Positions 22,626 through 38,456 are shown, counted from the first letter of the stretch. The stretch: 64,000 nt of DNA from a virus (IMGVR_UViG_3300043409_001318:32001-96000); one strand, 5' to 3'. Notes: generated by a model from the sequence alone, not told the origin. Numbers and translations are program-made.

Positions 22626-22826
22626 ATGATGAAAAGAAAGAACAGGTTTGATGTTGGAGACATTATCAAATTTAATTCTACACATGATTTGTCTAGTTAT
22701 TATTATCTAATTGTAGGAGAAGAAACAGAGAATTATTCAGACAATTATTTAGTTCTTTGCTTTGGTGATGGTTATGAATATCCTCTTGAAAAAAGCAACT
22801 CTCACTTCTATGATAAGGTGTCCTAA
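22626..22826 (+). CDS. small SH3/KOW-like protein
   Basis: FDVGDII; ends KVS. Confidence 0.75.
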   Translation: MMKRKNRFDVGDIIKFNSTHDLSSYYYLIVGEETENYSDNYLVLCFGDGYEYPLEKSNSHFYDKVS

Positions 22827-23050
22827 TGCTTCAAATTGGTGATTTGGTTGAATTAGTAAAACATATTGCTCTAAAAAATCAAGACCGCTATAAGGCTGAC
22901 CAACTCTATAAACCTTCTAATGTTTATGGACTTATTACTAAAATCTCCAGCGGTTATTATGATAACAAAGTAAACTATTATACCGTTATGTGGCTTACAA
23001 CGGGCGATAGTTATAAGTATGAAGCAGAAGAATTAGTAAAGGTATCATAA
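22826..23050 (+). CDS. small SH3/KOW-like protein
   Basis: MLQIGDLV; ends KVS. Confidence 0.75.
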   Translation: MLQIGDLVELVKHIALKNQDRYKADQLYKPSNVYGLITKISSGYYDNKVNYYTVMWLTTGDSYKYEAEELVKVS

Positions 23051-23253
23051 TGAAGTATAAAATTGGTGATATTCTTTGTTATGAAGATAAATTTGAAAAT
23101 ACTATTGTTGGTTCAGTACATTTTCTTATTACTGATGTGGATGTGGACGAAGTGCTATATTATTTTATGTGTCTTGATGAAGAAGTTGATCCAAATGCGT
23201 CATATAGTATAACTTTTGTTGATAGTTCCCCAAAATGGAGGAAGGTATCATAA
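23050..23253 (+). CDS. small SH3/KOW-like protein
   Basis: MKYKIGDIL; ends KVS. Confidence 0.75.
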   Translation: MKYKIGDILCYEDKFENTIVGSVHFLITDVDVDEVLYYFMCLDEEVDPNASYSITFVDSSPKWRKVS

Positions 23254-23459
23254 TGAAGTATAAAATCGGAGATATCTGCTATTATCGTGGATATCTCGCA
23301 AAAATTCCAAAATATGTTTTAATTGTTGATGAAGTAAGAGAGGGTCTTAAAGAAATGATATTTTTGGAAGATGGTTATAGATTTGTCGGCAAAGAACTTT
23401 ATTTATTGCCCCTTGACTTCCTTCGAAAGATTGATAAGGTAGAAGAAGAGGAAGCCTAA
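23253..23459 (+). CDS. small SH3/KOW-like protein
   Basis: MKYKIGDIC at the TAATG junction. Confidence 0.75.
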   Translation: MKYKIGDICYYRGYLAKIPKYVLIVDEVREGLKEMIFLEDGYRFVGKELYLLPLDFLRKIDKVEEEEA

Positions 23460-23683
23460 TGTTCCAAATTGGTGACCTTGTTCAAGTGAAAACACGCCTC
23501 AAAAACGATGCAGATAATCGACAATTAGTAGGAATTGTTGAAAGTGTTGTAGACGGTAAAGTTGGCGTTCGTTATTTAAATACTAATGACTTTGGATTTC
23601 ATATTTATAGTGGTATTACAGTTTACACAAATCCCCTTGACTATCTTCGAAAGATTGATAGTATTGTTGAAAAGGTAAAGTAA
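23459..23683 (+). CDS. small SH3/KOW-like protein
   Basis: MFQIGDLV. Confidence 0.75.
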   Translation: MFQIGDLVQVKTRLKNDADNRQLVGIVESVVDGKVGVRYLNTNDFGFHIYSGITVYTNPLDYLRKIDSIVEKVK

Positions 23684-23684
23684 A

Positions 23685-24011
23685 ATGGAAATCCCCCTTA
23701 CTTATTCTTCGCAAGCAGTTAAGGCCCGTGGAAATAATATTAATGAGAAACTACAATATCTTATTAATTGGTATACAAAAACAGGTAAGGATATTGAACC
23801 TTCTTGGGAATTTCAACGAGAACTTATGGAGTTTACAAAGCATTGGACTTTTGGACTTATCCAGCTTATGCGCGAAACTCCCGAAGAAACAAAGGAAGAA
23901 ATTATTAATCATCTACCGGATATTGAATATGTAATAATGAATTCTAAAAAGTCAGCTAATACGGTAGGTGCTATGTATCTTTATTGTGAACTACAAAATA
24001 TTGTGAGGTAA
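23685..24011 (+). CDS. hypothetical protein
   Basis: AAGG RBS; operonic. Confidence 0.7.
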   Translation: MEIPLTYSSQAVKARGNNINEKLQYLINWYTKTGKDIEPSWEFQRELMEFTKHWTFGLIQLMRETPEETKEEIINHLPDIEYVIMNSKKSANTVGAMYLYCELQNIVR

Positions 24012-24012
24012 T

Positions 24013-24210
24013 ATGATTTTTTCTCTTTTAATTATGTCTATTGGTTTTACCGCTTTTTGTATTCTCCATGAGGAAATCCCACCAAAAAAGCAAATTGTTC
24101 TTAAAATTCCAATCATTCCTGTTGTTGTCGATTTGATAGAAGATGATTATGTTTCAGATCCCGAAGAGATTGATCCTCCAACAATGATAATGCCAAGGAA
24201 GCAAAAATGA
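24013..24210 (+). CDS. small protein with N-terminal transmembrane helix
   Basis: MIFSLLIMSIGFTAFCIL. Confidence 0.65.
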   Translation: MIFSLLIMSIGFTAFCILHEEIPPKKQIVLKIPIIPVVVDLIEDDYVSDPEEIDPPTMIMPRKQK

Positions 24211-24434
24211 AGTTGACTGAATATCTAAATAATTCTATCACCGATGAAACTTCTGTAATTTTTGGAAAGTTTGGAGCAATTGAAAGTTTTAATTTAAATC
24301 CTAATGAAAAAGTAAAAGTTCTTACTCAAAAGATTATGAGGGACAAAAAGTATTTCTCAATCGATACCTTGACGGTCAACAAGAGTGGAGATATCTTGTT
24401 GATTGAAAGCGGAGATAAGAAGTGGGTGCCGTAA
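24207..24434 (+). CDS. hypothetical protein
   Basis: ATGA overlap; 3' end carries a promoter cassette. Confidence 0.6.
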   Translation: MKLTEYLNNSITDETSVIFGKFGAIESFNLNPNEKVKVLTQKIMRDKKYFSIDTLTVNKSGDILLIESGDKKWVP

Positions 24435-24634
24435 AGTTTAATTATGGGGATCTTGTCACCATTCAAGTAAATTATAGTAAATCTAATACTAATTTTGCGC
24501 GTCAAGGCTCCATAGGAATTATTATTGAACCAACAAAAGATTATACTCGCGGTTCTAATGTTGTGAAGGTATTTGGTAGTGATGATGAATGGTATCTTAG
24601 AAATAATGAAATGGATCTTCTTCATCGTGCTTGA
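24422..24634 (+). CDS. small SH3/KOW-like protein
   Basis: FNYGDLV. Confidence 0.7.
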   Translation: MGAVKFNYGDLVTIQVNYSKSNTNFARQGSIGIIIEPTKDYTRGSNVVKVFGSDDEWYLRNNEMDLLHRA

Positions 24635-24684
24635 CGGCTAAACGATAATGGTGATATACTTTTGGTTGAGAGTGGAGAACAAAG

Positions 24685-24909
24685 ATGAGTTCCCTAAAAT
24701 ATGCTGCTGGTGATATTGTTGTAAACTTTAATATTGGTGATATTGTTATTGTTAACTCCGAAGCATATGAAGAAGCTTTTGTAGGTGAAATAGGATATGT
24801 AGCATCAATGCCTTATCTATCTTTTTCATATATTACGTTTTTTAGTGATCCAGAACAAGAGATATTGTTTAAGAACTCCGAAATCTTTCTTAAACCTCTT
24901 GACGGCTAA
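24685..24909 (+). CDS. small SH3/KOW-like protein
   Basis: AGDIV..FNIGDIV. Confidence 0.7.
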   Translation: MSSLKYAAGDIVVNFNIGDIVIVNSEAYEEAFVGEIGYVASMPYLSFSYITFFSDPEQEILFKNSEIFLKPLDG

Positions 24910-24943
24910 ACAACAACAGGCTAAGGTATAAGCATCGGAGGAA

Positions 24944-25258
24944 ATGATGATGAATAACCGTCCCGAAATTGGCGATATGATTATGCTTCTTCGTCCCGAA
25001 ATCCGCGAACTTCCTCCCAAGGTTCGTCGTGGTCGTCCTCCCAAGGTTCCGCGTATTGAAACGGAAACTACTTGGCACGACGACGTTGAAGCAATCATTC
25101 TTAGTGGTCCTACGCAGGGAATTTCGTCCGATGGTGAAGATTATTGGCTGGAGTGGTTGACCCAGCGACTTGACAACGGAAAGAAGTGTGTTATTAGTAG
25201 TGGCGGCAGAGGATACATGAGTAATACCTTCCGTATTGTGCGAAGGGCAAATGAGTGA
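24944..25258 (+). CDS. SH3/KOW-like protein with AT-hook insert
   Basis: PEIGDMI; PPKVRRGRPPKVPR; GC-rich codons. Confidence 0.75.
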   Translation: MMMNNRPEIGDMIMLLRPEIRELPPKVRRGRPPKVPRIETETTWHDDVEAIILSGPTQGISSDGEDYWLEWLTQRLDNGKKCVISSGGRGYMSNTFRIVRRANE

Positions 25259-25455
25259 AGAAATTTGTAAAGAATAGTGTATGGTTTGCTTCACCAACCA
25301 ACGAAACCAAACCATTTTATTTTATTGTAATTCGTCCTCGCCCTATGGATATGAAGATTTCTATTTACAATTTTGATAGTGGCGAAATCAAAGAAAACTA
25401 TTATTTTAAATATGAAGAGATGGACCTAAATTATATCTTGACGAGGATTGACTAA
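25255..25455 (+). CDS. small hypothetical protein
   Basis: GTG start, operonic. Confidence 0.6.
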   Translation: MKKFVKNSVWFASPTNETKPFYFIVIRPRPMDMKISIYNFDSGEIKENYYFKYEEMDLNYILTRID

Positions 25456-25655
25456 TGCGAAAGTTCTTTAAGGATGTTGTGCTTGGCGATATTCTAATTT
25501 CAAAGCAGAGTATCAGCGGTATTAACTTTGTTGGAGTTGTTGAAACTATCGAACATGCACCAAAGCAATCTGTATCGATTAGAACTTTTCGCGAAGGCAA
25601 GACTTATATTATTCATGGTTCTTCAATTGGAGATACATGGGAAATTGTGACGTAA
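25455..25655 (+). CDS. small SH3/KOW-like protein
   Basis: VVLGDIL. Confidence 0.7.
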   Translation: MRKFFKDVVLGDILISKQSISGINFVGVVETIEHAPKQSVSIRTFREGKTYIIHGSSIGDTWEIVT

Positions 25656-25673
25656 ACAATAAAGGAAATTAAC

Positions 25674-25880
25674 ATGAAACTAATGCATGGTGATATACTT
25701 GTATACAAAAGTAATTTGTTCTTCGTTCTAAACCCTTCTCGTTTAGTATATGATGATGGTTCTTTTTTAGTGCTCGTCCAAAATTTAGAAGATAGTGGAG
25801 ATTTTAGAAACATTAATTCTACATACCATCTTGACAGCGGTATGTGGACCCGATACAATAACCAAACAAAGGAGAACTAA
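25674..25880 (+). CDS. small SH3/KOW-like protein
   Basis: LMHGDILV. Confidence 0.7.
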   Translation: MKLMHGDILVYKSNLFFVLNPSRLVYDDGSFLVLVQNLEDSGDFRNINSTYHLDSGMWTRYNNQTKEN

Positions 25881-25881
25881 A

Positions 25882-26088
25882 TTGACTTTCCGTGGCTTTT
25901 TCAATGATGATGCGAAGAGTGATAATGATAGTGATGTGATTATTTGTTCCGTTCATGGAGAATACCCAGCTTCTATGAAGGCTTTTGGGTGTCCCGAATG
26001 TGTTAAGGAAGCAGAAGACGAAGAGCAAGAAGAAGAAATGCTTAATAAGTCTAAAATTGCTCGCTTTAATACTCCAAGGAAGCGATAA
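25882..26088 (+). CDS. small zinc-finger protein
   Basis: CSVHG...CPEC; TTG start after AAGGAG. Confidence 0.6.
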   Translation: MTFRGFFNDDAKSDNDSDVIICSVHGEYPASMKAFGCPECVKEAEDEEQEEEMLNKSKIARFNTPRKR

Positions 26089-26252
26089 TGCCTATTTACA
26101 ATGATTTAACTGAAAAAGAAATAATCCAAAATCTTGTTGAAGATAAGATTTTACTTGAAGCAAAAGTAAAGCAGTTAGAAGCAGAAGTAAAAGGTCTTAA
26201 ACAAACAGACAGAAAATCTAAAATTATTCCTATCTACAATTTGGGAGATTAA
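26088..26252 (+). CDS. 54-aa coiled-coil protein
   Basis: TAATG coupling; followed by a TCAAAAGCATCAA inverted repeat. Confidence 0.6.
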   Translation: MPIYNDLTEKEIIQNLVEDKILLEAKVKQLEAEVKGLKQTDRKSKIIPIYNLGD

Positions 26253-26330
26253 TCAAAAGCATCAAATATTTAATTGATTTTGATGCTTTTGACGTAGTTT
26301 AAAACTATTTATTTCATAGGAGAAAATTCT

Positions 26331-27035
26331 ATGGAAGAAAATATAAAACTAAAAGAACAAAAAAAAAGATGGTATCAAGCCAATAAAGAACGGCTCAATC
26401 AAAAACAAAAAGAGCGTAACGAAGTCAATAAAGAACTAATAAGAGAAAGAAAAAAAAGATACGGGCAAGAAAATAAAGAAAAGATTTCAAATTTTAAAAA
26501 AGAGTGGTATCTTAAAAACAAAGAGAGAATTTTAGAAAATAGAAAAGAATATTATGAAAGTAATAAAGAACAAATAACTAAATATAAAAAAGAGTGGCAT
26601 CTAAAAAATAGACCAAAACGCTTGTTAGAGTTTAAAAGATATAATGAAGAAAACCAAGATAAAATTAAACAACAAAAAGCAATTTACAAAAGTAAATATC
26701 CAAACAAAAACAAAGAAAGTTCTTCTGCGTACAGACGTAAATATTTTGATAAGTTTAAAAGATATAGTATTACAAAATATGGGATTACGATTAAACAATA
26801 TCAAGATTTATTAGATAAACAATTACATAAATGCTATATATGTAAAATTGAAACCAAGAAGAACGGAAGAAGGTTATGTATAGACCACGATCATATTAAT
26901 GGTAAAGTTAGGGGTTTGTTGTGTAATCTTTGTAATTCCATATTAGGCTACGCAAAAGATAATATTGAAATATTACAAAACGCAATAAAATATTTACAAG
27001 AACCTCCATTCCAATCGGTTGACGAGGTAAAGTAA
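26331..27035 (+). mobile_element. endonuclease VII-family (His-Me) free-standing homing endonuclease
   Basis: CYICK..LCIDHDH..GKVRGLLC..CN..LG; repeated KEWY.KNKE; ACTATTTA at 26304. Confidence 0.9.
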
Positions 27036-27053
27036 ACAGATTAAGAGGTTTCT

Positions 27054-27254
27054 ATGAACGACCGAACCCTTTATGAATTCCAAATTGGGGATATTGTAGC
27101 CCATCGCATGAATGAGAATTTGACGGGGATCGTTCTTGAAACCAAATTTCTAAATCATAAAGATAGAGAAATTCTTTATATTTGTTGGTTTGCCGAAGGT
27201 CCAGCATCTAAAAAGCGTTATCCAGCCGCACATATCGTAAAGGTATCGTCGTGA
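27054..27254 (+). CDS. small SH3/KOW-like protein
   Basis: FQIGDIV; ends KVSS. Confidence 0.72.
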   Translation: MNDRTLYEFQIGDIVAHRMNENLTGIVLETKFLNHKDREILYICWFAEGPASKKRYPAAHIVKVSS

Positions 27255-27448
27255 AATATGAAATTGGGGATATTGTAAGATTGAAAGATACTAAGTTAAT
27301 TGGTATTGTTTTAGATTTTCACTTAGAACCAAATTCATCTTCAATTTTTGACGCTCAATCTTATCTTGAAATTCTTTTATTTCATAATAATATTTCCATG
27401 AAATATACATATTTTCCCCATTATGATAATTTTGAGAAGATATCATAA
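27251..27448 (+). CDS. small SH3/KOW-like protein
   Basis: YEIGDIV; ends EKIS. Confidence 0.72.
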   Translation: MKYEIGDIVRLKDTKLIGIVLDFHLEPNSSSIFDAQSYLEILLFHNNISMKYTYFPHYDNFEKIS

Positions 27449-27469
27449 ATTTTTATAGGAGAAACTAAA

Positions 27470-27550
27470 ATGTCTGTTGATCCTTTTTTGATTGTAGTTT
27501 TTTTAGGTTTTTTCTTCGCTATCTATTCTGCTGCGAAACTTCGTCTTTAA
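27470..27550 (+). CDS. 26-aa single-TM micropeptide
   Basis: AGGAG RBS; MSVDPFLIVVFLGFFFAIYSAAKLRL. Confidence 0.55.
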   Translation: MSVDPFLIVVFLGFFFAIYSAAKLRL

Positions 27551-27602
27551 CCCTTGCGCTCTTCCTACAACCCGTTAAGATTAGTTTGAAGAGAGGAAGA
27601 AA

Positions 27603-28223
27603 ATGAAAGGCTATCGTCGTCAGTCTAAATGCTCTTTCTGCTCCACCGTGGGTCATAATCGACGGGGCTGCGAATTATTTAAAAGTTCCAGAAACCAAAT
27701 TGTAGAGAAATATAAGATTTTCCGTGCAAAATGGTGGGAAGCTTACAAAGATCTTCCTTATGGCTATGGAACTATTTACGAACACGCGCTTGGAAGTTAT
27801 TGCCACAACGAAAAAGGACAATGGACCCGTTGCGAAGTTAATAATCTACTTACCGATACCATTGTGGGTATTATGCTTCCAAGCCTTATTAATGAAAGCG
27901 GAAATCTTATTGTTTCGGCTTTTTCTAATATTGAAGATAAAAGTAAGCACAATTATATTGAACTTCCTTTTGTTAAGGGATACATTACGGAATACTCCCG
28001 CAGAATAAACTCTCATGGATTTACTTATTGCGCTTTTCAAGAACCTTTTGAGAAGAATATTCTTTCTTTTGGAGCGACCCTTGCGGAAAGTGTAGACCGG
28101 GATAAGCTGAAGGAGTGGTTGGAAGCCGAAGATCTTCACAAGTCTTATAGGTTTATGGACCCTTCAACTTCTTACGATAATCTTATGGAAGGTTATGGAA
28201 TGAATACTGAAATCGTCGGGTAA
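27603..28223 (+). CDS. CCHC zinc-knuckle protein
   Basis: CSFCSTVGHNRRGC. Confidence 0.8.
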   Translation: MKGYRRQSKCSFCSTVGHNRRGCELFKSSRNQIVEKYKIFRAKWWEAYKDLPYGYGTIYEHALGSYCHNEKGQWTRCEVNNLLTDTIVGIMLPSLINESGNLIVSAFSNIEDKSKHNYIELPFVKGYITEYSRRINSHGFTYCAFQEPFEKNILSFGATLAESVDRDKLKEWLEAEDLHKSYRFMDPSTSYDNLMEGYGMNTEIVG

Positions 28224-28288
28224 AAGAAACTTGAAATCGTCCTTGACGGTGGACTTCAACGGGTTAATAGTAGAAGACAAGGGAGGAA

Positions 28289-29023
28289 ATGATGGGATCG
28301 TGCCGTTTCTGTGGAAGCAAAGGACATAATCGTAATGGTTGCCCCGATGTTGCGGCTCACGCTGCCAGCGGCAAGGCAAAGATCGTAGAAGGACAGGATC
28401 GCTATTCTCTTGATTGGAGGGAGCGTTTCGCGGTTTCTATCCAAGAGAACAAGGCTACCCGTTCTGCTCGTGTATCTACTTCTCCTCGCAAGTGTTCCTA
28501 TTGCTCCGTAGCGGGTCATACGCGCGCAACCTGCACTACTCTTGTTGAGGATCGGCAAGCAGCTTTCAATCACGAAAAGACGTTCCGCACTAATTTTGTG
28601 AATTGGGTTGCTAATAGCGGAATTGGTATTGGAACAATTCTAACTCGTCAAATGTGGGATAATACAGAGTTTTCGCTGCTTGTGCTTGGTGTGGATTACA
28701 AAACAATCAATATTTTGAATACTCATGGAAGTAATGTTATTCGCGCGCAGTATCTTAATCGTGTTGGTTGGGAAAATGAGGTAGGAAATTACAATATTGC
28801 TCCAATTAAATCTTTTGGGTTTGAAATTTCCGCTCCTGCTTCTTCCGTTCCTGTTCCCGAAAGTTTCCTAAATGAAGAAGTAATTAAGAATTTGGTTGAT
28901 GGTTGGTTTGATGGAAAAAGCACGCGCTCTTCTCGTTGGGATAATTATAACGCTGGTTGTTTCCGCGTAGGTCGGCCCGATCTTACGGATTTGAGCGAGA
29001 AGGCAAAGATTTACGCAGTTTAG
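28289..29023 (+). CDS. double CCHC zinc-knuckle protein
   Basis: CRFCGSKGHNRNGC and CSYCSVAGHTRATC. Confidence 0.85.
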   Translation: MMGSCRFCGSKGHNRNGCPDVAAHAASGKAKIVEGQDRYSLDWRERFAVSIQENKATRSARVSTSPRKCSYCSVAGHTRATCTTLVEDRQAAFNHEKTFRTNFVNWVANSGIGIGTILTRQMWDNTEFSLLVLGVDYKTINILNTHGSNVIRAQYLNRVGWENEVGNYNIAPIKSFGFEISAPASSVPVPESFLNEEVIKNLVDGWFDGKSTRSSRWDNYNAGCFRVGRPDLTDLSEKAKIYAV

Positions 29024-29086
29024 AAATTATTTAGCCCTCCTTGACTTCCGGGTCTTGGAGGGCTAATCATTAGTGGGAGACGAAAA

Positions 29087-29299
29087 ATGAAGTTCGATGT
29101 TGAAGAAGCAATTGAAGAAATCCTTGTCGAAGGTTTTAGCGAGGGAGATCTTTTGCGAGCGGTCCTTGCAGTTCTTCCAAAAAGTGATATTGCTGAAATT
29201 CTAAATTCAGCCGAAGAACACCTTTTTGCTGGTAAGGAAGAAGAGGAAGAAGATTGGGATAGCGACGAAGATCAAATTGACGAGGAAGAAGAATTCTAA
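29087..29299 (+). CDS. highly acidic small protein
   Basis: D/E-rich tail; paralogue of 31938. Confidence 0.75.
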   Translation: MKFDVEEAIEEILVEGFSEGDLLRAVLAVLPKSDIAEILNSAEEHLFAGKEEEEEDWDSDEDQIDEEEEF

Positions 29300-29490
29300 T
29301 GCTTAACGTCGGAGATCTTGTTGAAGTAATTTACAGGCAAAATAAACCTGCGATCATAATCTCCATTTTTAAGGAAAGAGACAATAAAGATAAATTTAAA
29401 GAACTGAAAACTTATTATGTCGTTAAACATTTTGAGGATGAAGGAACAGGAGAATGGTTGGAAACTTCGCTCCGACGCTTGACGGCTTGA
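29299..29490 (+). CDS. small SH3/KOW-like protein
   Basis: MLNVGDLV. Confidence 0.72.
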   Translation: MLNVGDLVEVIYRQNKPAIIISIFKERDNKDKFKELKTYYVVKHFEDEGTGEWLETSLRRLTA

Positions 29491-29527
29491 AAGCACAAGG
29501 ATAAGGTATAAGCATCGGAGGAAAGAA

Positions 29528-29824
29528 ATGGCTGGTGAAAGACTTTGCGGGAATTGTGGTGAGCCTAACCATAACCGGCGCACTTGTAAAAACCTCGCAA
29601 AAGCTCCAGCCGTAAGGGAGGTCGCCCCTTTTCCCCAAATCCCTGCTATTCCTTTTAAGCAGGTTGAACGGGTAGAATATGAGGGTGACCTCCCGATAGT
29701 CGATATGACGCCTTGCCTTCTTCGACTAAAAGGTTATACCCAAATCTGTTCGGGGTCGTTCCGTATGACCGTTCCCGATGATACCACCTTCGATCAAATC
29801 TCTAACTATGTCTTTTGGAGATAA
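29528..29824 (+). CDS. CCHC zinc-knuckle protein
   Basis: CGNCGEPNHNRRTC. Confidence 0.8.
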   Translation: MAGERLCGNCGEPNHNRRTCKNLAKAPAVREVAPFPQIPAIPFKQVERVEYEGDLPIVDMTPCLLRLKGYTQICSGSFRMTVPDDTTFDQISNYVFWR

Positions 29825-29825
29825 T

Positions 29826-30044
29826 ATGCGAGAATACCAGCGGTTCAACCTTGGAGATATTGTCAAGCATAAGTATCAAAATAATCATGGTTATATTTTT
29901 AAGGTTCATAGTCCATATTATGCCGTGCTTAACCCTCACAACGAAGCTTATACGGTTATATGGTTTAACGAAGACCTTAACGACCGTCTAAGGTATGGAT
30001 ACGATCAAATCGAACTTGGCGATATTATCGTAAAGGTGTCCTAA
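29826..30044 (+). CDS. small SH3/KOW-like protein
   Basis: FNLGDIV; ends KVS; start at ATG 29826. Confidence 0.72.
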   Translation: MREYQRFNLGDIVKHKYQNNHGYIFKVHSPYYAVLNPHNEAYTVIWFNEDLNDRLRYGYDQIELGDIIVKVS

Positions 30045-30235
30045 TGTTCCAAATCGGTGATATTGTTGAACTTTATAACTCCGAAGAAGATAAAGTTCAT
30101 ACAGGTATGATATCTTCCAATATTATGGCTTCTACTTGGCATGATGAAGAAGAAGAATATTATAAAGTTGTTTGGTTTGATGAAAAAAATTCCTTGACGG
30201 AAGAACATTATTCTAATCTTGAAAAGGTATCCTAA
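30044..30235 (+). CDS. small SH3/KOW-like protein
   Basis: MFQIGDIV; ends KVS. Confidence 0.75.
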   Translation: MFQIGDIVELYNSEEDKVHTGMISSNIMASTWHDEEEEYYKVVWFDEKNSLTEEHYSNLEKVS

Positions 30236-30393
30236 TGCTCCAAATTGGCGATATCGTAAATTTTAGTTATCTTACGGGTTTTGTAGTAAAACTTGACAAA
30301 GATCATTTTTGGATTAAGTGGTTTGATCTGGAAGAAGAATATGCTTATCATCTTTCCCAAGAAACACTTTTTCTAATCAAAAAGGTATCGTAA
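30235..30393 (+). CDS. 52-aa SH3/KOW-like protein (not in track)
   Basis: MLQIGDIV...KKVS; TAATG at both ends. Confidence 0.75.
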   Translation: MLQIGDIVNFSYLTGFVVKLDKDHFWIKWFDLEEEYAYHLSQETLFLIKKVS

Positions 30394-30563
30394 TGTTTCA
30401 AATTGGTGATATTGTAATGATGGAGGAAGATAAACAAGAGGGAGAAATTTACGGATATGTGACCGAATTTGAAGAAGAAACCCTTTATCTTTGCGTTTCT
30501 TGGTTTGACGGGCAAAAAAGCATAGAATTCCCTAATCATGTGAAAAAGGTAGAAAATGGCTAA
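30393..30563 (+). CDS. 56-aa SH3/KOW-like protein (not in track)
   Basis: MFQIGDIV. Confidence 0.75.
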   Translation: MFQIGDIVMMEEDKQEGEIYGYVTEFEEETLYLCVSWFDGQKSIEFPNHVKKVENG

Positions 30564-30804: not shown

Positions 30805-30860
30805 AAAGTTCCTTGACGCTTTAGAACAACAGGTTAAGTAGAAAACCCCAAGGAGAACAA

Positions 30861-31016: not shown

Positions 31017-31041
31017 ACTAACAACTTTTTTTGGAGTTAAA

Positions 31042-31519: not shown

Positions 31520-31520
31520 T

Positions 31521-31655
31521 ATGGATAATTGGGAAGAGCAGAAAAAGAAAGATATTGAATTCATGGATAAGCTTACTTTTGTCCTTGCTTCTGCCGCAAG
31601 TTGCTATATAGTCTTTTACTTTATCCCTATGGTTATCCATAAGATTTTCTTCTAA
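31521..31655 (+). CDS. 44-aa single-TM protein
   Basis: AAGGAGG RBS. Confidence 0.6.
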   Translation: MDNWEEQKKKDIEFMDKLTFVLASAASCYIVFYFIPMVIHKIFF

Positions 31656-31711
31656 AAGTTCCTTGACGCTCTTTGTAGATCGGTTAATCTCTAAAACGAA
31701 GGAGAAAGAAA

Positions 31712-31867
31712 ATGTTCATCGTCGCGGTTCACGATTGGAATACTAACGAGGTCAAATACGCTGGTCCCTTTGACTTCGTAAACGCTGCTATAGTATGGAT
31801 TGACGAGCAAGCAAAAAACGATAACGAAGATATTGATTACGAGATTTGCCCGCTTAAGGCTCCGTAG
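31712..31867 (+). CDS. 51-aa hypothetical protein
   Basis: Promoter at 31663 and AAGGAG RBS. Confidence 0.65.
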   Translation: MFIVAVHDWNTNEVKYAGPFDFVNAAIVWIDEQAKNDNEDIDYEICPLKAP

Positions 31868-31937
31868 TTCAAAAATCTTGAAAACTTCCTTGACGGCTCC
31901 CCGAAACGCATTAAGTGGATGAAGAAGGAGAAAGAAA

Positions 31938-32147
31938 ATGGCTGGTAATTCTGCTTGGGTCCGCATGGAACGGCTTCTTGAGATTGGTTTTACTCACGAA
32001 AAGCTGCTTGAAGAGATTATGCACGCTCTTTCTGCTGCTGAAGCTGAAGATATTTTCGACCATATTGAGCGTATGCACGATATCGGGGAAGAAGAAGAAG
32101 AAGAAGAAGAAGAAGAAGAAGATTGGATTTGTGAAGGAACGCCTTGA
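31938..32147 (+). CDS. acidic small protein with poly-Glu (E11)
   Basis: (GAA)11 at 32088-32120; promoter at 31890. Confidence 0.75.
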   Translation: MAGNSAWVRMERLLEIGFTHEKLLEEIMHALSAAEAEDIFDHIERMHDIGEEEEEEEEEEEDWICEGTP

Positions 32148-32196
32148 CGCTCTCTCTAAACTGATTAAGTAGAAGAAGAAGGAGAAAGAAAATGAC
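32142..32196 (+). repeat. 55-bp promoter+RBS cassette, copy 2
   Basis: 54/55 identical to 18298-18352. Confidence 0.95.
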
Positions 32197-32374
32197 GGTC
32201 GCTCAGCTTCGTGCGCTTCTCGCTAATCTTCCCGATGATATGCGGATCGCTCTTTCCTATGAGGGTTCGGTATCTACGTTCATTTCTGGTTATACCTGCT
32301 TTGAAGATGAACGCGGCAACGAGATTAGCGAAAGTGAGGCTACGTCAAGCGATTTTCTCGTTTTTGTTGAATGA
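32192..32374 (+). CDS. small hypothetical protein
   Basis: MTVAQLRALLANLPDDMRI, a common phage small-protein start. Confidence 0.75.
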   Translation: MTVAQLRALLANLPDDMRIALSYEGSVSTFISGYTCFEDERGNEISESEATSSDFLVFVE

Positions 32375-32395
32375 AAGAAAGAGGAAAGAAAATGA

Positions 32396-32632
32396 TTGAC
32401 GGACTTAGAGGTAATGGTTAATTGAAAGGGGCTGGAGAGAAAACCAGCAAGAAGAAGAAAAGAGAAAAAGACCCTTGACGAAGTTTGAGGGTCGGTTAAG
32501 AAGAAAAGGACAACGTGAGGATTGAAAGCCCCTCACCAAAGAAAAAAGGTCAAGGCGGAAAGTTGAGAAACTTCCTTGACGCTCAGCCAAGAAAGGTTAA
32601 GTAGAAAGGGCTGGAGGGAATGGTTCCCAAAG
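32396..32632 (+). promoter_or_regulatory. three tandem early promoters with hairpin leaders
   Basis: TTGACG at 32396, 32475 and 32576, each followed by GGTTAA. Confidence 0.7.
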
Positions 32633-32665
32633 GCTCAGCAACTCAAAGTCGATACGAGGTTCACA

Positions 32666-33088
32666 ATGGCCCGCGCGAACACCCCCTCTACCTACGCTTG
32701 TGGTTCCTGCAACGAGTTCGGCCACAACAAGCGCACCTGCCCTGCTCTTGGTCTTGTCGCAAAGGCTAAGCCTGTCAAGAAGCCCCGTGCGAAGAAGGTT
32801 GTTGAGGAAACGGTGACCGCTCCCGCTATCCCGCTCGCAACCGTGGAAGAGATTGAGGCTCTTCACGCGATGGTTGAAGCTCTTGTTGCCGCCGATGCGG
32901 AGCAGGACGAGGTTAGCGAGGTTGAGGAAGAGATTGAGCCTACCGACGAAGAGCTTAGCGAGATCGAAATTGCGGAGGTTGATGCTGCCTTTGAGGCTGA
33001 GACTGAGGAAGAGACTTTCGATGCCTCCGACGTTACCGACGAAGAGGCCGATGCTTTCCTCGATCAGTATGCTGCGCTCTTCGCCTAA
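32666..33088 (+). CDS. CCHC zinc-knuckle protein with long acidic tail
   Basis: CGSCNEFGHNKRTC; start moved to ATG 32666. Confidence 0.85.
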   Translation: MARANTPSTYACGSCNEFGHNKRTCPALGLVAKAKPVKKPRAKKVVEETVTAPAIPLATVEEIEALHAMVEALVAADAEQDEVSEVEEEIEPTDEELSEIEIAEVDAAFEAETEEETFDASDVTDEEADAFLDQYAALFA

Positions 33089-33103
33089 AAGTTGAGAGAT
33101 ATT

Positions 33104-33146
33104 AAGAGGTTGGAGGTTCAAAAGGCTTCCAGCCTCTTTTTCTTTT
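33104..33146 (+). terminator. intrinsic terminator
   Basis: AAGAGGTTGGAGG/CTTCCAGCCTCTT stem plus T tract. Confidence 0.8.
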
Positions 33147-33203
33147 AGTGAGAGAGGAATTATCAAGTTCCCTCCAAGGTTTTTACAAATCTTCAAAGCC
33201 TCC

Positions 33204-33355
33204 TTGACGGTCTTTGAGGAGGGGTTAAGAAGAAAGGGTGAGGGTCGAAACCCCTCAGCAAGTTCCAAAGAGGGTCGAAAGGAAATCTTCAAAAGACCCT
33301 TGCGCCCCTTTGAGGAACGGTTAAGTAGAAAGTGTGGAGGGAATGGTTCCCAAAG
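33204..33355 (+). promoter_or_regulatory. two tandem early promoters with hairpin leaders
   Basis: TTGACG 33204 and TTGCGC 33300; 21-nt leader identical to 32612-32632. Confidence 0.7.
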
Positions 33356-33384
33356 CAAAACCCGCAATCAAGGTAATTCACCAA

Positions 33385-34470
33385 ATGGCTATCGACTTCA
33401 AGACCTTCCTTTCTATCGTTCCTTACGTTCTTGATGTGCGTAAGCCTGTTCTCATTCGCGGTCGCCACGGTATCGGCAAGAGCGAGGTTATCTATCAGAT
33501 CGCCCGTGAGCTTGGTCTGCCGGTGGTCGAACGTCGTGTTTCGCAAATGACTGAGGGTGACCTTCTTGGTATGCCTTCCGCTATCGGCGTGGAGATTGGC
33601 GGCAAGCGTGCGACTACTTGGGACGCTCCCGATTGGCTTCTTACCGCTTGTGCTCAGCCCGTCGTGATGTTCCTTGACGAAGTGGATCGCGGAACTACGG
33701 AGGTTCGACAGGGCATTTTTGAGCTTACTGATAGCCGCAAGATTGCCGGTGTCACGCTTCACCCCGGAACGCTGATTATTGCCGCTGTAAACGGAGGAAA
33801 TCACGGGTCGCAATACCAAGTTGGTGAAATGGACCCTGCTGAGCTTGACCGCTGGACTGCTTTTGACCTTGAGCCTACCGTAGAGGATTGGCTTACTTGG
33901 GCTAAGGACAACACCCACGGGCTTGTTTGGGACTTTATCAACCAAAATCGCAAGGATCTTGAGCACGGTGGCGATTTTGAGCCTAATAAGAAGTATCCTT
34001 CTCGTCGTTCGTGGAAGCGGTTGAATGATTGTCTCGTCGCTGGCAAGCTTACGACGGACGCGGCTACCAAGGCTTCAATCATTTACAACCTCGCTTGTGG
34101 ATTTGTGGGCTTTGAAGCGGCAGTTAAGCTCAAGTCTCACGTTGAAAACTACAAGGAGCAGGTTACCGTCGAAGATATCCTTGACGCTGGAAAGGTGAGC
34201 AAGACTAAGGACTTCACGGTTACCGATCACGCTGCGCTGGTCGAAAAGATCGCTCAGTCGGATCGTCTTAAGGTCGCTCTTGACGCTAAGATCCTGAAGA
34301 ACCTTGGTGCATATTGGCTTACCGTCCCCTCTGAGGTAAGCATGAAGCTCTACACGGAAGTTGGTCGTCAGTTCGTAAAGAACGCAGTTGCTATGCACGC
34401 AATTGAGATTGACGGCGTGAAGCTTGGTGGGCACCTTGCCGCGATGCTTGGAGCCAACCGCAACAAGTAG
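33385..34470 (+). CDS. MoxR-family AAA+ ATPase
   Basis: GRHGIGKS Walker A, FLDEVDR Walker B, MDPAELDRW, PSRRSW. Confidence 0.92.
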   Translation: MAIDFKTFLSIVPYVLDVRKPVLIRGRHGIGKSEVIYQIARELGLPVVERRVSQMTEGDLLGMPSAIGVEIGGKRATTWDAPDWLLTACAQPVVMFLDEVDRGTTEVRQGIFELTDSRKIAGVTLHPGTLIIAAVNGGNHGSQYQVGEMDPAELDRWTAFDLEPTVEDWLTWAKDNTHGLVWDFINQNRKDLEHGGDFEPNKKYPSRRSWKRLNDCLVAGKLTTDAATKASIIYNLACGFVGFEAAVKLKSHVENYKEQVTVEDILDAGKVSKTKDFTVTDHAALVEKIAQSDRLKVALDAKILKNLGAYWLTVPSEVSMKLYTEVGRQFVKNAVAMHAIEIDGVKLGGHLAAMLGANRNK

Positions 34471-34485
34471 TCGATAATCCCCATT

Positions 34486-34524
34486 AAACCCTCGCTTTTC
34501 CTTCGGGATTAGCGGGGGTTTTCT
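34486..34524 (+). terminator. intrinsic terminator
   Basis: AAACCCTCGCT/AGCGGGGGTTT stem. Confidence 0.75.
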
Positions 34525-34529
34525 GCTTT

Positions 34530-35095
34530 TAATCCGCAAATTTCAAGGGCATTTCAGTTCTTGGAATGTGAAATGTGAAAGCCTTACGGGTGAGGTTCAA
34601 GGGGCACCAGCAAGACCCCCGTTAGACCCTCTTGGAACGCTTATGAGCCCCGAAGAGCACAAGGGGTAGGGGCGAGTAGGAGCGAGGAAGAAGAAGCCCC
34701 ATATCGCAATAGGTTTAGCAAGTAGTTTTGGACCAACGCGCAACCTCTTTTAGAAGAAAAAGATCAGATAAAGCCCTTGACAAACCAAACTAAACTTTTG
34801 GTTTAGGTTCGTTATTGTAAAAAGCTTGTGAAGCCTCTTGACTTTTAGAAGATACAAAATGTCGTTAGTTCTCCACAAGTAACGCAAGATCGGAACACCC
34901 TTCCAGCCTGCCCCGTGGAGGAACCTGTAAGACCTCCGCTAAGGGCTATGGGAACGCTTATGGGAGCGATGAAGGGCAAAGGGTAGGGTAAGGTGGCTCT
35001 CCAAGGTCCACGAGGCTCATAAGCGAAATGGTGATGTTGAGAGAAGTTGGTGGGCTGTCAAGGGTAAAGAAGAAGAAAGTTGAAGAAAGTTTCTC
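34530..35095. other. GC-rich ORF-poor region with direct and inverted repeats
   Basis: GGAACGCTTATG twice (34634, 34951); CGCTTATGAGCC/GGCTCATAAGCG inverted pair (34638, 35014). Confidence 0.6.
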
Positions 35096-35148
35096 CTTGA
35101 CGATCAAGGTGGACCCGTTAAGAAGAGTGCGAAGGAGAAAGAAAGAAA

Positions 35149-35325
35149 ATGGCAAAGCTCATCGGCATCTACCTCATCGCGGTTTCTCACCTTTCCAACA
35201 TCGTGCCCCTTGCAGTTCCCGAAGGCGAGGTTAGTGGAGGTGGCGCGGAGATCGAAGCGGTTTACCTTCCTGCTGGTTTCACCGGTCCTATCGTCGCTGC
35301 TCCTTTTGATGTCAAGGTCTTTTAA
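35149..35325 (+). CDS. 58-aa hypothetical protein (not in track)
   Basis: Promoter at 35097 and AAGGAG RBS. Confidence 0.7.
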   Translation: MAKLIGIYLIAVSHLSNIVPLAVPEGEVSGGGAEIEAVYLPAGFTGPIVAAPFDVKVF

Positions 35326-35384
35326 GAAATAAAAAGTCCTTGCTCTTATCCACCAACCTGTTAATAGGAAGAAGAGGAGGGAAG

Positions 35385-35981
35385 ATGAACGGTCAAGAAC
35401 GGATAGCAGCGATCAAAGCTTCTGCTGGATGGGCTACGCTTTCTGCAAGGCATCAAGATTTCGTCAATTCTGTTGAGGAATTCGTCAAAACCCGTCCTCT
35501 TTCGATTGGTCAAGAAAGCTGGGTTGAACGTGTTGAAAATATGGTAGCCAACCCCGTCGATCCTTCTTGGTTTGACCTCAATAACGAGGAAAATCAAAAG
35601 AAGCGCGCTTATACTATCCAGCACTACAAGGCTGCGGGTTTTTATCACGTTCAAACTACGCGAATGGAAGCCGATCCTGCTTTTATGCCTAATAAAGAAC
35701 TTTGGGATAGAATGTGGGGAAACAAGTATATCAACGCGGCTTTTACGAGGTGGACAAAAGGATCGCGCTTCAAAATCGGCGATATGGTAGTCAATAAGTA
35801 TTTTACTCATTACTACGGAAAGATCGCGGTTGTTGAAAGCGTCAAGTGGAATAATTCGTGCTGGATTTATGACGCTATTGCGCTTAGTCCGGGCGAAAGT
35901 TGTCCTAATCCAAAAATGCAGATGATTGATGAAAAGCACTTGCTTCCTGCTTCTAATCGCAATCTTAAAAATCGTATCTAA
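35385..35981 (+). CDS. hypothetical protein with C-terminal SH3/KOW-like domain
   Basis: GGAGG RBS before ATG 35385; FKIGDMVV. Confidence 0.8.
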   Translation: MNGQERIAAIKASAGWATLSARHQDFVNSVEEFVKTRPLSIGQESWVERVENMVANPVDPSWFDLNNEENQKKRAYTIQHYKAAGFYHVQTTRMEADPAFMPNKELWDRMWGNKYINAAFTRWTKGSRFKIGDMVVNKYFTHYYGKIAVVESVKWNNSCWIYDAIALSPGESCPNPKMQMIDEKHLLPASNRNLKNRI

Positions 35982-36063
35982 TCCTTAGTCGTCAAGGTCT
36001 TTCTCTAAAAAAGATTGACCTTGACGGCTTTTCATAGCGGGTTAACTTCAAGGAGGAGGAAAG

Positions 36064-36231
36064 ATGCAAGAAAGCTTCAAGAGCGAAGACCACACGGCTT
36101 TTTGCGATATGGTGCTTGGCTCCGATAATGGTTTTAGCGAGGGAGATTGTCAAGTTCTTTATCTTCATGCTCTTATGGAGAAGTGGGGCACGCCCCTTGA
36201 CAATCCCCGCGATAACGATAAACTCTTTTAG
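36064..36231 (+). CDS. 55-aa acidic protein (not in track)
   Basis: AGGAGG RBS; promoter near 36020. Confidence 0.6.
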   Translation: MQESFKSEDHTAFCDMVLGSDNGFSEGDCQVLYLHALMEKWGTPLDNPRDNDKLF

Positions 36232-36239
36232 GAGGTTCT

Positions 36240-36449
36240 ATGGCTAAGGCAAAGCATCCAATCCGCGTTTATCCTCTTATCCATGAAGTTGTGGAGGAAG
36301 TCAAGACTAATCGTTCAGCAAAGGTCACTTTCCTTGATCCTCGTATTGTCAAGGTTAGGTGGACTGATACTGATATTGTTGAAGAGTTGAGCCGTGAGCT
36401 TTTCTTTGATACAAATTTCCGTATCATCCAGCGTGTGACTTTTGCTTAA
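36240..36449 (+). CDS. small hypothetical protein
   Basis: AGGAGG RBS. Confidence 0.7.
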   Translation: MAKAKHPIRVYPLIHEVVEEVKTNRSAKVTFLDPRIVKVRWTDTDIVEELSRELFFDTNFRIIQRVTFA

Positions 36450-36651
36450 GCCTGCTCCCGAACTTGGAACACCTGTTATAGCCCAAAATATTGAGGGTAA
36501 AAAGGATTATGGATATGTAGCCAGATTTATGGGAAACCCAAAGGATAAAGAAGGTCGATATTCAATCCTAATTACTTTTTATCAAGATCAGAATTCACGT
36601 TATTTCACGAATGGGGAGGAAGGTTCACTATGGTCCAAAATCCACTTGTAA
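36442..36651 (+). CDS. small SH3-like protein
   Basis: PELGTPV variant; operonic. Confidence 0.6.
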   Translation: MLKPAPELGTPVIAQNIEGKKDYGYVARFMGNPKDKEGRYSILITFYQDQNSRYFTNGEEGSLWSKIHL

Positions 36652-36863
36652 ATATTGGAGATTTGGTATGGGTTAAAATCCAACTTGGAAAAGATCATTA
36701 TACTTCCTTGACGGCTTTTATTCTTTCGGTTAACCCTATTAATGTTGGACTTGGTGAATATATATCATCCTATCATGTTGAATATTTTGAGATAAATACT
36801 CCCGAAGGAACTACCCTTTATGGTGTTGACTATGGTAATAGGTGGGGGAAACTTGATACATAA
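36630..36863 (+). CDS. small SH3/KOW-like protein
   Basis: VNIGDLV. Confidence 0.7.
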   Translation: MVQNPLVNIGDLVWVKIQLGKDHYTSLTAFILSVNPINVGLGEYISSYHVEYFEINTPEGTTLYGVDYGNRWGKLDT

Positions 36864-37080
36864 TATTGATGTTGGAGATCTTGTAGAAGTTAAATATAGT
36901 ATCAGTAGCACAAATTATACTTATCGATATGCTTACGTTACTGAAATTGATGTTCAAGTTGGAGCGCACCGAGCTTCTAATTCACACGCAAGCGATGGAT
37001 TTGTTGCTAAATATTTTGATGTAGATGATATTTGTTATCTTCTTTATAATCAAAATGGAAGCTGGTGGCAAAAGATATGA
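36820..37080 (+). CDS. small SH3/KOW-like protein
   Basis: IDVGDLV; start uncertain. Confidence 0.68.
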   Translation: MVLTMVIGGGNLIHNIDVGDLVEVKYSISSTNYTYRYAYVTEIDVQVGAHRASNSHASDGFVAKYFDVDDICYLLYNQNGSWWQKI

Positions 37081-37274
37081 ATATGAGCGAACCAAAGGTC
37101 GGAGATATTATTAGTTATAAATCTTCTTTGATAGAGAAACAATATGGAATAATTGCTAAATTGCCTTATGGGGAAATTATGCACGTTGAATGGTTTGATC
37201 CAGCCAACGCAGAATTGATTGGAAATAAAATCTCAATTTGGGGATATGGTGAGATATGGCATATAGCAAATTAA
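37065..37274 (+). CDS. small SH3/KOW-like protein
   Basis: PKVGDII. Confidence 0.68.
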   Translation: MAKDMNMSEPKVGDIISYKSSLIEKQYGIIAKLPYGEIMHVEWFDPANAELIGNKISIWGYGEIWHIAN

Positions 37275-37480
37275 ATATTGGTGACTTGGTTGAAGTTATT
37301 GATGCGTCCAAATATGTCTTGACAACCGAACTTGGAATATATACAATTATCGAAGAACAAATAGGAGAAACATATACAACCTATCTTGCCGTTTTAATGT
37401 TTGGCGAAGAACAAAATAGAATTTGGATATTTCCATCACAGGAGAATAAATCATGGATAAAAGTTTCATCCGTGAATTGA
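37256..37480 (+). CDS. small SH3/KOW-like protein
   Basis: LNIGDLV; ends KVSSVN. Confidence 0.68.
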   Translation: MAYSKLNIGDLVEVIDASKYVLTTELGIYTIIEEQIGETYTTYLAVLMFGEEQNRIWIFPSQENKSWIKVSSVN

Positions 37481-37677
37481 ATGTCGGACAAGTTGTTATG
37501 TATAAGGCAAGCCACGAGTTCAACAACCCTCCTATTGCTGCCTATGGTGTTGTTAGCGAAGTAAGCGACAAAGTATTTATTAAATGGTTTGACACCGATA
37601 AAGAAACTACATATGCTTTCAACACAATCCATAGACTATTGAGGGAGAAAATGTTGGAAATCGTATCGAAGGATTAA
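37453..37677 (+). CDS. small SH3/KOW-like protein
   Basis: LNVGQVV. Confidence 0.68.
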   Translation: MDKSFIRELNVGQVVMYKASHEFNNPPIAAYGVVSEVSDKVFIKWFDTDKETTYAFNTIHRLLREKMLEIVSKD

Positions 37678-37875
37678 ATGAATATATTTAATATTGGCGA
37701 TATCATCATTCCCATTGAAGGGATTAAAGGAAATATATGGATTGTATTAAATGTAATAACTCCAGCCGTCGATAGCACTTCTTATTATGTTCTTCAAAAT
37801 TTAGAGGAAGAAGATGAAATAGAAGTATTGTATTGTAATCATATAGAGAAGTATTATGAGAGAGCCAATGAATAA
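37678..37875 (+). CDS. small SH3/KOW-like protein
   Basis: FNIGDII. Confidence 0.7.
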   Translation: MNIFNIGDIIIPIEGIKGNIWIVLNVITPAVDSTSYYVLQNLEEEDEIEVLYCNHIEKYYERANE

Positions 37876-38086
37876 TCAATTCAATGTAGGCGATATAATC
37901 CAATCAACTTATAGTGATGCCCATGATAATCATATTTACTTTCTTGTAATTGAAGCAACCCATATATCAAATGATAATCAGCTTTATAAGTTTAAGAATA
38001 TTGCTTATGATCTTGAACTAACTTATAGTTTTAATGATATTACTTATAAGAACTATGAATTAGTATCAAAAGCTCAAAGGGATTAA
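37856..38086 (+). CDS. small SH3/KOW-like protein
   Basis: FNVGDII; ends VSKAQRD. Confidence 0.7.
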   Translation: MREPMNNQFNVGDIIQSTYSDAHDNHIYFLVIEATHISNDNQLYKFKNIAYDLELTYSFNDITYKNYELVSKAQRD

Positions 38087-38292
38087 AATGAAATGTTTAA
38101 GATAGGGGATATCATCCAGCATAAATCTATTAATGATGATTATTACTATATTGTTCTTAATACATTCCATAGAGATACATATGAATTTTACACTCTATTC
38201 TCTTTTATTGAAATGAAGGAAGTACCCGTAAGAGCAAATCATTCTATACATTATAAGATAGTCTCAAAAGCTCAAAGGGATTAAAATGAAAT
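38066..38292 (+). repeat. 29-bp exact direct repeat bracketing one gene
   Basis: TCAAAAGCTCAAAGGGATTAAAATGAAAT at 38066-38094 and 38264-38292. Confidence 0.95.
38093..38284 (+). CDS. small SH3/KOW-like protein
   Basis: MFKIGDII; ends VSKAQRD. Confidence 0.72.
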   Translation: MFKIGDIIQHKSINDDYYYIVLNTFHRDTYEFYTLFSFIEMKEVPVRANHSIHYKIVSKAQRD

Positions 38293-38456
38293 TCAATATA
38301 GGTGATGTTGTTAAGGGTATGACAGAGAACGATGTTTATTGGATTATTATTGATATGGATAACACCAATTACTCTATAAAGCCTATTAACAATATAGAGC
38401 ATGTAACTATAAGGATGGCTATTACAAGAATAGATAGATATTGGGAGTGTTGTTAG
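38286..38456 (+). CDS. 56-aa SH3/KOW-like protein (not in track)
   Basis: MKFNIGDVV. Confidence 0.7.
   Translation: MKFNIGDVVKGMTENDVYWIIIDMDNTNYSIKPINNIEHVTIRMAITRIDRYWECC

Follow-up and report, generated by a model that had tools for sequence, protein, structure and literature searches.

The window analysed here, a stretch of 64,000 nucleotides, covers bases 32001-96000 of the 184,352-bp virus record IMGVR_UViG_3300043409_001318, a single contig with 33% G+C that CheckV rates as 100% complete. Its plus strand contains a family of about 35 small genes, roughly one in eight (~12%) of the genome's genes, which are packed into four or five co-oriented operon-like runs and whose products are predicted to be small β-barrels of the SH3/Tudor/KOW class. 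The family is genuine and, for a kind that is known but unexplained, of unusual size; what is new is its size within one genome, its status as an unnamed sequence family, and the natural strain comparisons that place the gain and loss of single units at coding junctions. The major capsid protein encoded in the record is of the T4 gp23 type (PF07068, E 8.8e-60), which marks the phage, on sequence grounds, as a distant T4-like myovirus. Among cultured phages, a megablast search with 18 kb of the region returned no DNA match and a tblastn search with one member no protein match.

The members share the N-terminal motif hydrophobic-x-[IVL]-G-D-[ILV]-[IV], which occurs 30 times on the plus strand and 0 times on the minus strand of the window in all six frames. 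Genome-wide, the count is 33 on the plus strand versus 1 on the minus strand; all but three of these hits fall at genome 48-82 kb, and the strong cases all fall at window 16-50 kb. When the 35 candidate members are aligned, mean column identity is 16%. Conserved columns comprise the strand-1 word G-D, two further strands of the form G-x-V and Y-x-V-x-W/F, and K-V/I at the end; the remainder varies. The conserved positions are thus those that would determine the fold, and the rest has diverged; a shared N-terminal motif followed by divergence is what an earlier, sequence-only reading of this DNA had described. Tested leave-one-out with a hidden Markov model (HMM), 30 of the 35 members are recovered at E<0.01, whereas 24944 and 25674 are not recovered (E about 1) and three members, 23253, 36442 and 49679, are borderline. 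A six-frame scan of the genome with the family HMM adds no further member, the next best open reading frame (ORF) reaching E 0.02. Nearly all members (33/35) are single-domain proteins of 52-90 residues, and two are the C-terminal domains of longer ORFs (16117-16575 and 35340-35981). Most are acidic, with a median isoelectric point (pI) of 5.4, and aromatic residues account for ~13% of the sequence; in the Royal-family Tudor/chromo/PWWP readers, aromatic residues form the cage that binds methylated Lys/Arg.

Between 22626 and 38456 lie 28 members, 26 of them robust, and seven lie outside this span (16348, 17391, 17602, 17810, 42506, 44744 and 49679). The sequence-only reading had placed more than 30 such genes within 22626-38456; since only 28 of the 35 fall there, its figure is true of the genome (35 members, 30 robust) but not strictly of the span. 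Array A (22626-23683) consists of five contiguous, TAATG-joined members starting at 22626, 22826, 23050, 23253 and 23459 (leave-one-out E 2e-7, 3.4e-9, 1.3e-6, 0.013 and 1.8e-5, respectively). It continues at 24422-25880 with members 24422, 24685 and 25455 (E 0.0019, 6.4e-7 and 5.2e-4), the doubtful members 24944 and 25674 (E 1.2 and 1.6), and a small non-member gene at 25255. The doubtful copy 24944-25258 carries an AT-hook-like insert, RRGRPPKVPR, between its first-strand motif and the remainder, which suggests that this copy may bind the minor groove of DNA. Array B (27054-27448) has two members, 27054-27254 and 27251-27448 (E 2.1e-8 and 1.8e-5), and is followed by a single member at 29299-29490 (E 4.7e-6). 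Array C (29826-30563) again comprises contiguous TAATG-joined members, four in number, at 29826, 30044, 30235 and 30393 (E 3.5e-10, 2.9e-8, 1.1e-5 and 6.5e-9). The C-terminus of the 213-residue ORF 35340-35981 contains a family domain at 35712-35981 (E 0.0011). Array D (36442-38456) is made up of ten contiguous, mostly overlapping members (36442, 36630, 36853, 37077, 37256, 37453, 37678, 37868, 38093 and 38286), with E-values from 0.039 for 36442 down to 2.7e-8. Upstream of array A, a family domain forms the C-terminus of ORF 16117-16575 (16348-16575, motif at 16372, E 6.6e-9), and three adjacent, mutually overlapping members occupy 17391-18013 (17391-17639, 17602-17817 and 17810-18013; E 6.7e-4, 7.2e-4 and 2.8e-9). 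Downstream of array D are isolated members at 42506-42700 (E 9.2e-6) and 44744-44962 (E 8e-6) and a marginal one at 49679-49948 (motif at 49724, E 0.063). All of these features are encoded on the plus strand.

Structural modeling points to a common fold. The AlphaFold2 model of member 30044, built from a paralogue alignment, has five strands, a predicted local distance difference test (pLDDT) value of 87.5 and a predicted template modeling (pTM) score of 0.70. Its Foldseek list consists uniformly of Tudor, chromo-barrel, PWWP and R67 dihydrofolate reductase (DHFR) domains, with template modeling scores up to 0.84 and no match below E 1e-3. An exhaustive VIA structure search with the same model returned Tbtudor (Z 8.7, root-mean-square deviation 1.8, 58 residues aligned), the MRG15 chromo-barrel (Z 8.0), R67 DHFR (Z 7.3, 21% identity), CarD (Z 7.2) and Spt5 KOW (Z 7.2). 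The divergent member 23253, which is 12% identical to 30044, yields a model with pLDDT 72.6 and five strands in identical order, and matches the same fold class at Z 5.5-6.5. Structural neighbours also include PWWP domains (Z 6.5), the C-terminal Tudor domains of UvrD/PcrA bound to RNA polymerase and the KOW domains of Spt5/NusG. Both models have the features of an SH3-like small β-barrel, namely a ~60-residue five-stranded antiparallel barrel with SH3 topology. The common barrel that the sequence-only reading had proposed to look for with AlphaFold and Foldseek is therefore found in two diverged members, and these models support an SH3/Tudor/KOW-class five-stranded barrel for the family.

At the sequence level, no Pfam family reaches threshold; the sub-threshold matches, each to single members, are SH3-C_UBE2O, DUF2158, YccV-like and KN17_SH3, and no member matches KOW (PF00467) at E up to 1. 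PHROGs yields only families of 'unknown function', the best being phrog_3261 with two members. Among 5.8 billion proteins, a profile search retrieved nothing but unnamed hypothetical proteins that carry no Pfam domain, and a profile search against PDB sequences gave nothing below E 0.016. In the ESM Atlas, the nearest clusters are unnamed viral proteins, with DfrB as the nearest named cluster (score 0.89). The R67/DfrB type II dihydrofolate reductase is an SH3-like tetramer (PMC9835603) and shares with the family the ~60-residue SH3-like barrel and the G-D word in the first strand. This resemblance is confined to the fold: DfrB identity was rejected because PF06442 is not matched at E up to 1 and the V-Q-I-Y active-site/pore motif is absent, no member containing [VI]Q[IV]Y.

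Two published groups of phage barrels are comparable. In the Viral AlphaFold Database, the largest fold clusters specific to bacterial viruses are those of SH3/Tudor-like barrels, which make up ~1.3% of phage proteins (PMC12487901). They resemble the present family in fold class and size and are likewise phage-restricted and unnamed; unlike them, it comprises ~35 copies in one genome, is arranged in coupled arrays, and has its own sequence signature without a Pfam model. T4 GoF and MotB.1 are a published early family of SH3 topology (PMC12152347). The LSm-like GoF/MotB.1/Frd.2 proteins are, as here, multi-copy, diverged small barrels in dispensable early regions of T4-type phage, and they are non-essential in the laboratory. 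T4 has three copies, built as an N-terminal barrel with an extra C-terminal domain, whereas the present family has ~35, mostly single-domain; in its two longer ORFs the barrel is C-terminal, contrary to the T4 arrangement. No sequence relation is detectable, and homology was rejected: hhalign of the 35-member alignment gives a probability of 0.3% for GoF and 0.6% for MotB.1.

Orthologues of the members are present in several independent metagenomes; contigs L018 and L020, for example, carry orthologues of the members at 24422-25880. Relative to contigs L017-L022, which are 97% identical to the window, the ratio of non-synonymous to synonymous substitution rates (dN/dS) is 0.28 for concatenated family orthologues versus 0.16 for neighbouring non-family genes. 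Relative to the more diverged contig L001 (~80% nucleotide identity), nine family orthologues with 39-75% amino acid identity give 0.29 overall and 0.18-0.43 per gene. The L001 orthologue of the 35712 domain is 70% identical (dN/dS 0.21), that of 42506 75% (0.43) and that of 44744 69% (0.27). At 24422, the 97%-identical contigs show 8.5 non-synonymous versus 0.5 synonymous differences, a tiny sample. A dN/dS of ~0.28, together with an orthologue of its own for each copy, indicates that the members are real genes, each individually maintained by purifying selection. The opposite reading, that the ORFs are not genes but frames left open by chance in AT-rich DNA, with a short motif in common, could appeal to their very short length and to the lack of any Pfam family at threshold. 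It is refuted by the strand bias of 30 to 0, the dN/dS value, the orthologues conserved in independent samples, the Shine-Dalgarno words upstream and the confident AlphaFold2 model, and its probability is close to nil.

The copies are old paralogues. Identity between paralogues is 10-35%, the best pairwise scores are low, no near-identical copies exist among the aligned members, and the best match is the neighbouring gene in 6 cases versus 2.0 expected (p=0.04), a weak enrichment. These observations exclude a recent amplification, and in that sense the 'accordion' of the sequence-only reading is not supported. Poxvirus-type genomic accordions are recent amplifications of near-identical copies; they are similar to the present arrays in that one gene family is arranged in tandem with copy number varying between strains, but the copies here are ancient and each is individually conserved. 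The term 'hypervariable', used in the same reading for the barrel surfaces, is likewise not upheld: dN/dS between orthologues is 0.28-0.29, and no match to reverse transcriptase (PF00078) was found in the complete genome. Hypermutation by a diversity-generating retroelement is thereby excluded.

The junction AAGGTRTCVTAATG occurs at six sites (22815, 23039, 23242, 30033, 30224 and 30382; 0.00 expected), exactly the positions named in the sequence-only reading, and the two exact repeats that it reported, of 25 nt (23039 = 23242) and 29 nt (38066 = 38264, on either side of gene 38093), are confirmed. The last codons of one gene often carry a Shine-Dalgarno word and overlap the start of the next; overall, a Shine-Dalgarno-like word lies ≤18 nt upstream of 28 of the 35 members, mostly within the last codons of the preceding gene. 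In the sequence-only reading, each junction supplies stop, ribosome-binding site (RBS), start and first strand. The TAATG type is found in just two sub-arrays, 22815-23255 and 30033-30395. Array D has gene overlaps of 1-28 nt in place of the TAATG junction, and array B a variant junction with a GTG start at 27240-27253. The KVS/KIS ending attributed to many members is found, as K[VI]S within the last 7 residues, in 10 of the 35. The exact 25- and 29-nt blocks occur within gene pairs that are otherwise dissimilar, a pattern that fits recent exchange at the junctions.

Comparison with related contigs reveals that array content varies by whole-gene units. In L017-L022, 23459 is replaced by two unrelated genes (encoding a 59-residue hydrophobic protein and an 83-residue protein), with breakpoints 2 nt into its start codon and 11 nt ahead of the start of the next gene. 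The same contigs contain an extra gene for a 94-residue barrel-like variant between direct repeats of an RBS+ATG word, of which the window retains one copy at 24193-24214. L025 (~84% identity) has an extra 62-residue member ahead of the 37868 orthologue, and its flanks repeat ~30 nt that comprise the junction and N-terminal codons. This 62-residue member is also present in L001, which is without 37868, 38093 and 38286 and in which 37077-37666 (three members) is replaced. In L028, the two neighbours of 30044 follow one another without it in uninterrupted sequence, and the breakpoints lie within the repeated junction. Across these comparisons, 10 of 11 breakpoints lie ≤30 nt from a start codon. 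Single genes are thus present, absent or replaced between strains, with breakpoints at stop/RBS/start junctions; invariant array content, which would have spoken against the sequence-only reading, is not what is observed. A separate observation concerns the tail of the 23253 orthologue at L018:960-990, which is a mosaic of the window tails of 23253 and 23459 (23430-23461 and 23655-23683); both tails share the ending P-L-D-F/Y-L-R-K-I-D, and the mosaic suggests recombination between these paralogue tails.

These events need not be promoted by the junctions. The repeated sequence could be a passive by-product of descent, coupling signals and β-1 codons, with turnover occurring by illegitimate recombination or exchange with co-infecting phages, and whole-gene events being simply those that survive selection. 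Synonymous sites inside the motif codons vary freely, so that no constraint is evident at the nucleotide level; the TAATG junction is limited to two sub-arrays; the replacement of 23459 introduced unrelated genes; and survivorship bias also puts breakpoints between genes. Against this stand three independent single-gene indels flanked by direct repeats of the junction itself and the exact 25- and 29-nt blocks in otherwise dissimilar neighbours, and on balance we consider the passive account less likely than not.

A known system with a similar outcome is the PeSL-mediated shuffling of genes at repeated boundary cassettes in T4-type phages (PMC2839356, PMC4122927), where short gene-boundary repeats likewise coincide with insertion, deletion and replacement of small accessory genes between close relatives. 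A PeSL cassette combines a sigma-70-like promoter with a stem-loop terminator at the edges of exchanged genes. A comparable place is the 5' edge of array A, where a terminator-like hairpin (22543-22577) and then a promoter-like site (22592-22619) lie on the plus strand just 5' of the first array gene. Homology with L017/L019 breaks at 22580, between the strong hairpin and the promoter-like site. Upstream of this point the window has a methyltransferase cassette (21017-22481) encoding a 211-residue protein and an N4/N6 methylase (PF01555), whereas L017/L019, 97% identical in the arrays, carry instead a gene for a 193-residue protein, a D12-class methylase (PF02086) and an extra 215-residue gene. 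With a hairpin, a promoter-like site and a strain-specific insertion at exactly this place, 22543-22619 seems to behave like a PeSL cassette, the methyltransferases being swapped at a terminator/promoter boundary. Unlike PeSLs, the repeats inside the arrays are coding (last codons, RBS, start and first-strand codons) and contain neither promoter nor stem-loop.

The family profile matches 163 proteins at E<1e-3 among 1.84 billion representatives, mostly stand-alone proteins of 50-80 residues and a few long ones with several repeats. The close relative L001 has 22 matches in a 52-kb fragment, versus 0-1 in each of four distant relatives (175-192 kb, CheckV 92-100% complete, VWA protein ~55% identical), and from these counts the expansion appears specific to the sub-lineage. 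Protein P0001 of contig L030 (L030:4444-7026) has 860 residues, with at least six fused barrel-motif repeats followed by an unrelated C-terminal domain; barrel units therefore also exist as beads on a string. L030 further encodes a divergent DNA polymerase and a tubulin homologue and is jumbo-phage-like.

The motif CTTG[AC][CG]-N15-[AG]TTAA is found 16 times on the plus strand of the window (15536-36045; 0.48 expected), for example at 30812, 31662, 32143, 32575 and 33203. Genome-wide there are 17 copies on the plus strand versus 0 on the minus strand, almost all at genome 47.5-68 kb, and a conserved AGAAG...GGAGAAAGAAAATG leader often lies 3' of the motif, which is probably the phage's own sigma-70-type early promoter class. 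The T4-type late promoter word does not occur on the plus strand inside the arrays, and we infer that the arrays are expressed early.

The interpretation that we consider probable, if by a modest measure, is that the genes represent a lineage-specific Tudor/SH3-like mini-barrel family in a plus-strand accessory region of the hyperplastic type, with junction-associated turnover of units and with products that are putative binders. Under this interpretation, the runs would be translationally coupled and transcribed early from local promoter-like sites. The short homology at the junctions would arise as a by-product of shared ancestry, coupling signals and conserved β-1 codons and could then act as a recombination substrate, so that the coding junctions inside the arrays would take the role that the PeSL promoter-terminator cassettes have in T4-type hyperplastic regions. 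The proteins themselves would be dispensable, mostly acidic, cytoplasmic binders, the diverged surface of each recognising a different host or phage macromolecule and thereby tuning takeover or host-specific fitness.

Several points weigh against this interpretation. Both AlphaFold2 alignments consist largely of paralogues, so the two models are not fully independent tests of a common fold, and Z-scores like the best ones here (6-9) are attained by small barrels against many unrelated chains. Of about 30 junctions, 6-7 are of the TAATG type. The relatives are contigs from metagenomes, two of which (L026 and L028) contain N-gaps that were disregarded; what looked like a loss of two genes in L026, and the order of genes in L028 past position 837, reflect these scaffold gaps and were discarded as evidence. 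Breakpoints defined by BLAST are drawn towards the conserved N-terminal codons. With homology at the junctions limited to 18-35 nt (76-100% identity), the indels could be accounted for just as well by slippage or illegitimate recombination. Finally, the family HMM was trained on this genome, and a lack of sensitivity may be responsible for part of the low counts in distant relatives.

As to function, the members are most likely early accessory proteins and putative binders. Their mostly acidic character argues against general nucleic-acid binding and for protein binding. The sequence-only reading had considered a binder library against host defence or host machinery plausible. A repertoire of inhibitors, in which each barrel blocks a different host immunity protein and units turn over as host defences change, would be in line with members that are small, acidic, non-core, probably early and strain-variable, with a lineage-specific expansion, and with strain-swapped methyltransferase cassettes directly 5' of the arrays. 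No member matches a known anti-defence protein or a named family, though, and selection on the orthologues is of the ordinary purifying sort, without the marks of an arms race, 24422 being a possible exception; we regard such a repertoire as unlikely.

The members might instead act on RNA or on the transcription/translation machinery, modulating host or phage gene expression in the manner proposed for T4 GoF. Other small barrels act in this way, such as Hfq/LSm, NusG-KOW, and the Tudor-like domains of CarD/Mfd/UvrD that bind the RNA polymerase β lobe. The structural neighbours CarD, the UvrD/PcrA C-terminal Tudor domains and Spt5/NusG KOW point in this direction, as do the CCHC zinc-knuckle proteins interleaved with the arrays. 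Profile comparison shows no relation to GoF or MotB.1, however, the KOW Pfam model is not matched, the median pI speaks against a general affinity for nucleic acids, and resemblance of fold at Z 6-8 is no indication of function. CarD and the UvrD C-terminal domain, which bind RNA polymerase, and the transcription-related KOW domains serve as leads only, and a role in gene expression seems improbable.

A stronger form of the binder interpretation is that the arrays constitute a modular repertoire of putative host-specific binders for counter-defence or takeover, in which the coding junction doubles as a recombination cassette, a protein-coding analogue of PeSL. We advance this proposal tentatively and hold it to be rather doubtful; if true, the junction (last codons, RBS, start and first strand) would let the phages of a population exchange, gain or lose binders one at a time. 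The natural strain variants already reveal which units can be dispensed with or are exchanged, and at which points the DNA breaks, making this genome a good system for asking what mini-barrels bind and whether short coding junctions drive modular shuffling in phage accessory regions. If the members turn out to bind host proteins specifically, they would form a natural library of minimal binding scaffolds.

The surroundings of the arrays contain further features. Eleven tRNA genes (Arg, Ile, 2 Leu, Ser, Lys, Thr, Glu, Met, Tyr and Asn) are clustered at 19938-20996, directly 5' of the arrays. Between arrays A and B, 26331-27035 encodes a 234-residue protein with a Lys/Glu-rich, repetitive N-terminal half and a C-terminal endonuclease VII domain (PF02945, E 1.7e-24). 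A second set of paralogues, interleaved with the barrel arrays, consists of four proteins with N-terminal CCHC zinc knuckles (C-x2-C-x4-H-x4-C) at 27603-28223, 28289-29023, 29528-29824 and 32576-33088, the 244-residue one having two knuckles; no PHROG or Pfam family reaches threshold for these proteins. A PHROGs search with ten neighbours from outside the family, among them the zinc-knuckle proteins and ORF 35340 in its N-terminal part, returned nothing. The segment 28000-36000 stands out as an island of 43-50% G+C, against 29-38% in the rest of the genome; it contains the zinc-knuckle genes, small proteins of very acidic character, the majority of the promoter motifs and a MoxR-type AAA ATPase (33334-34470). 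This ATPase is paired with a DUF2201 metallopeptidase/VWA protein encoded at 38894-40063.

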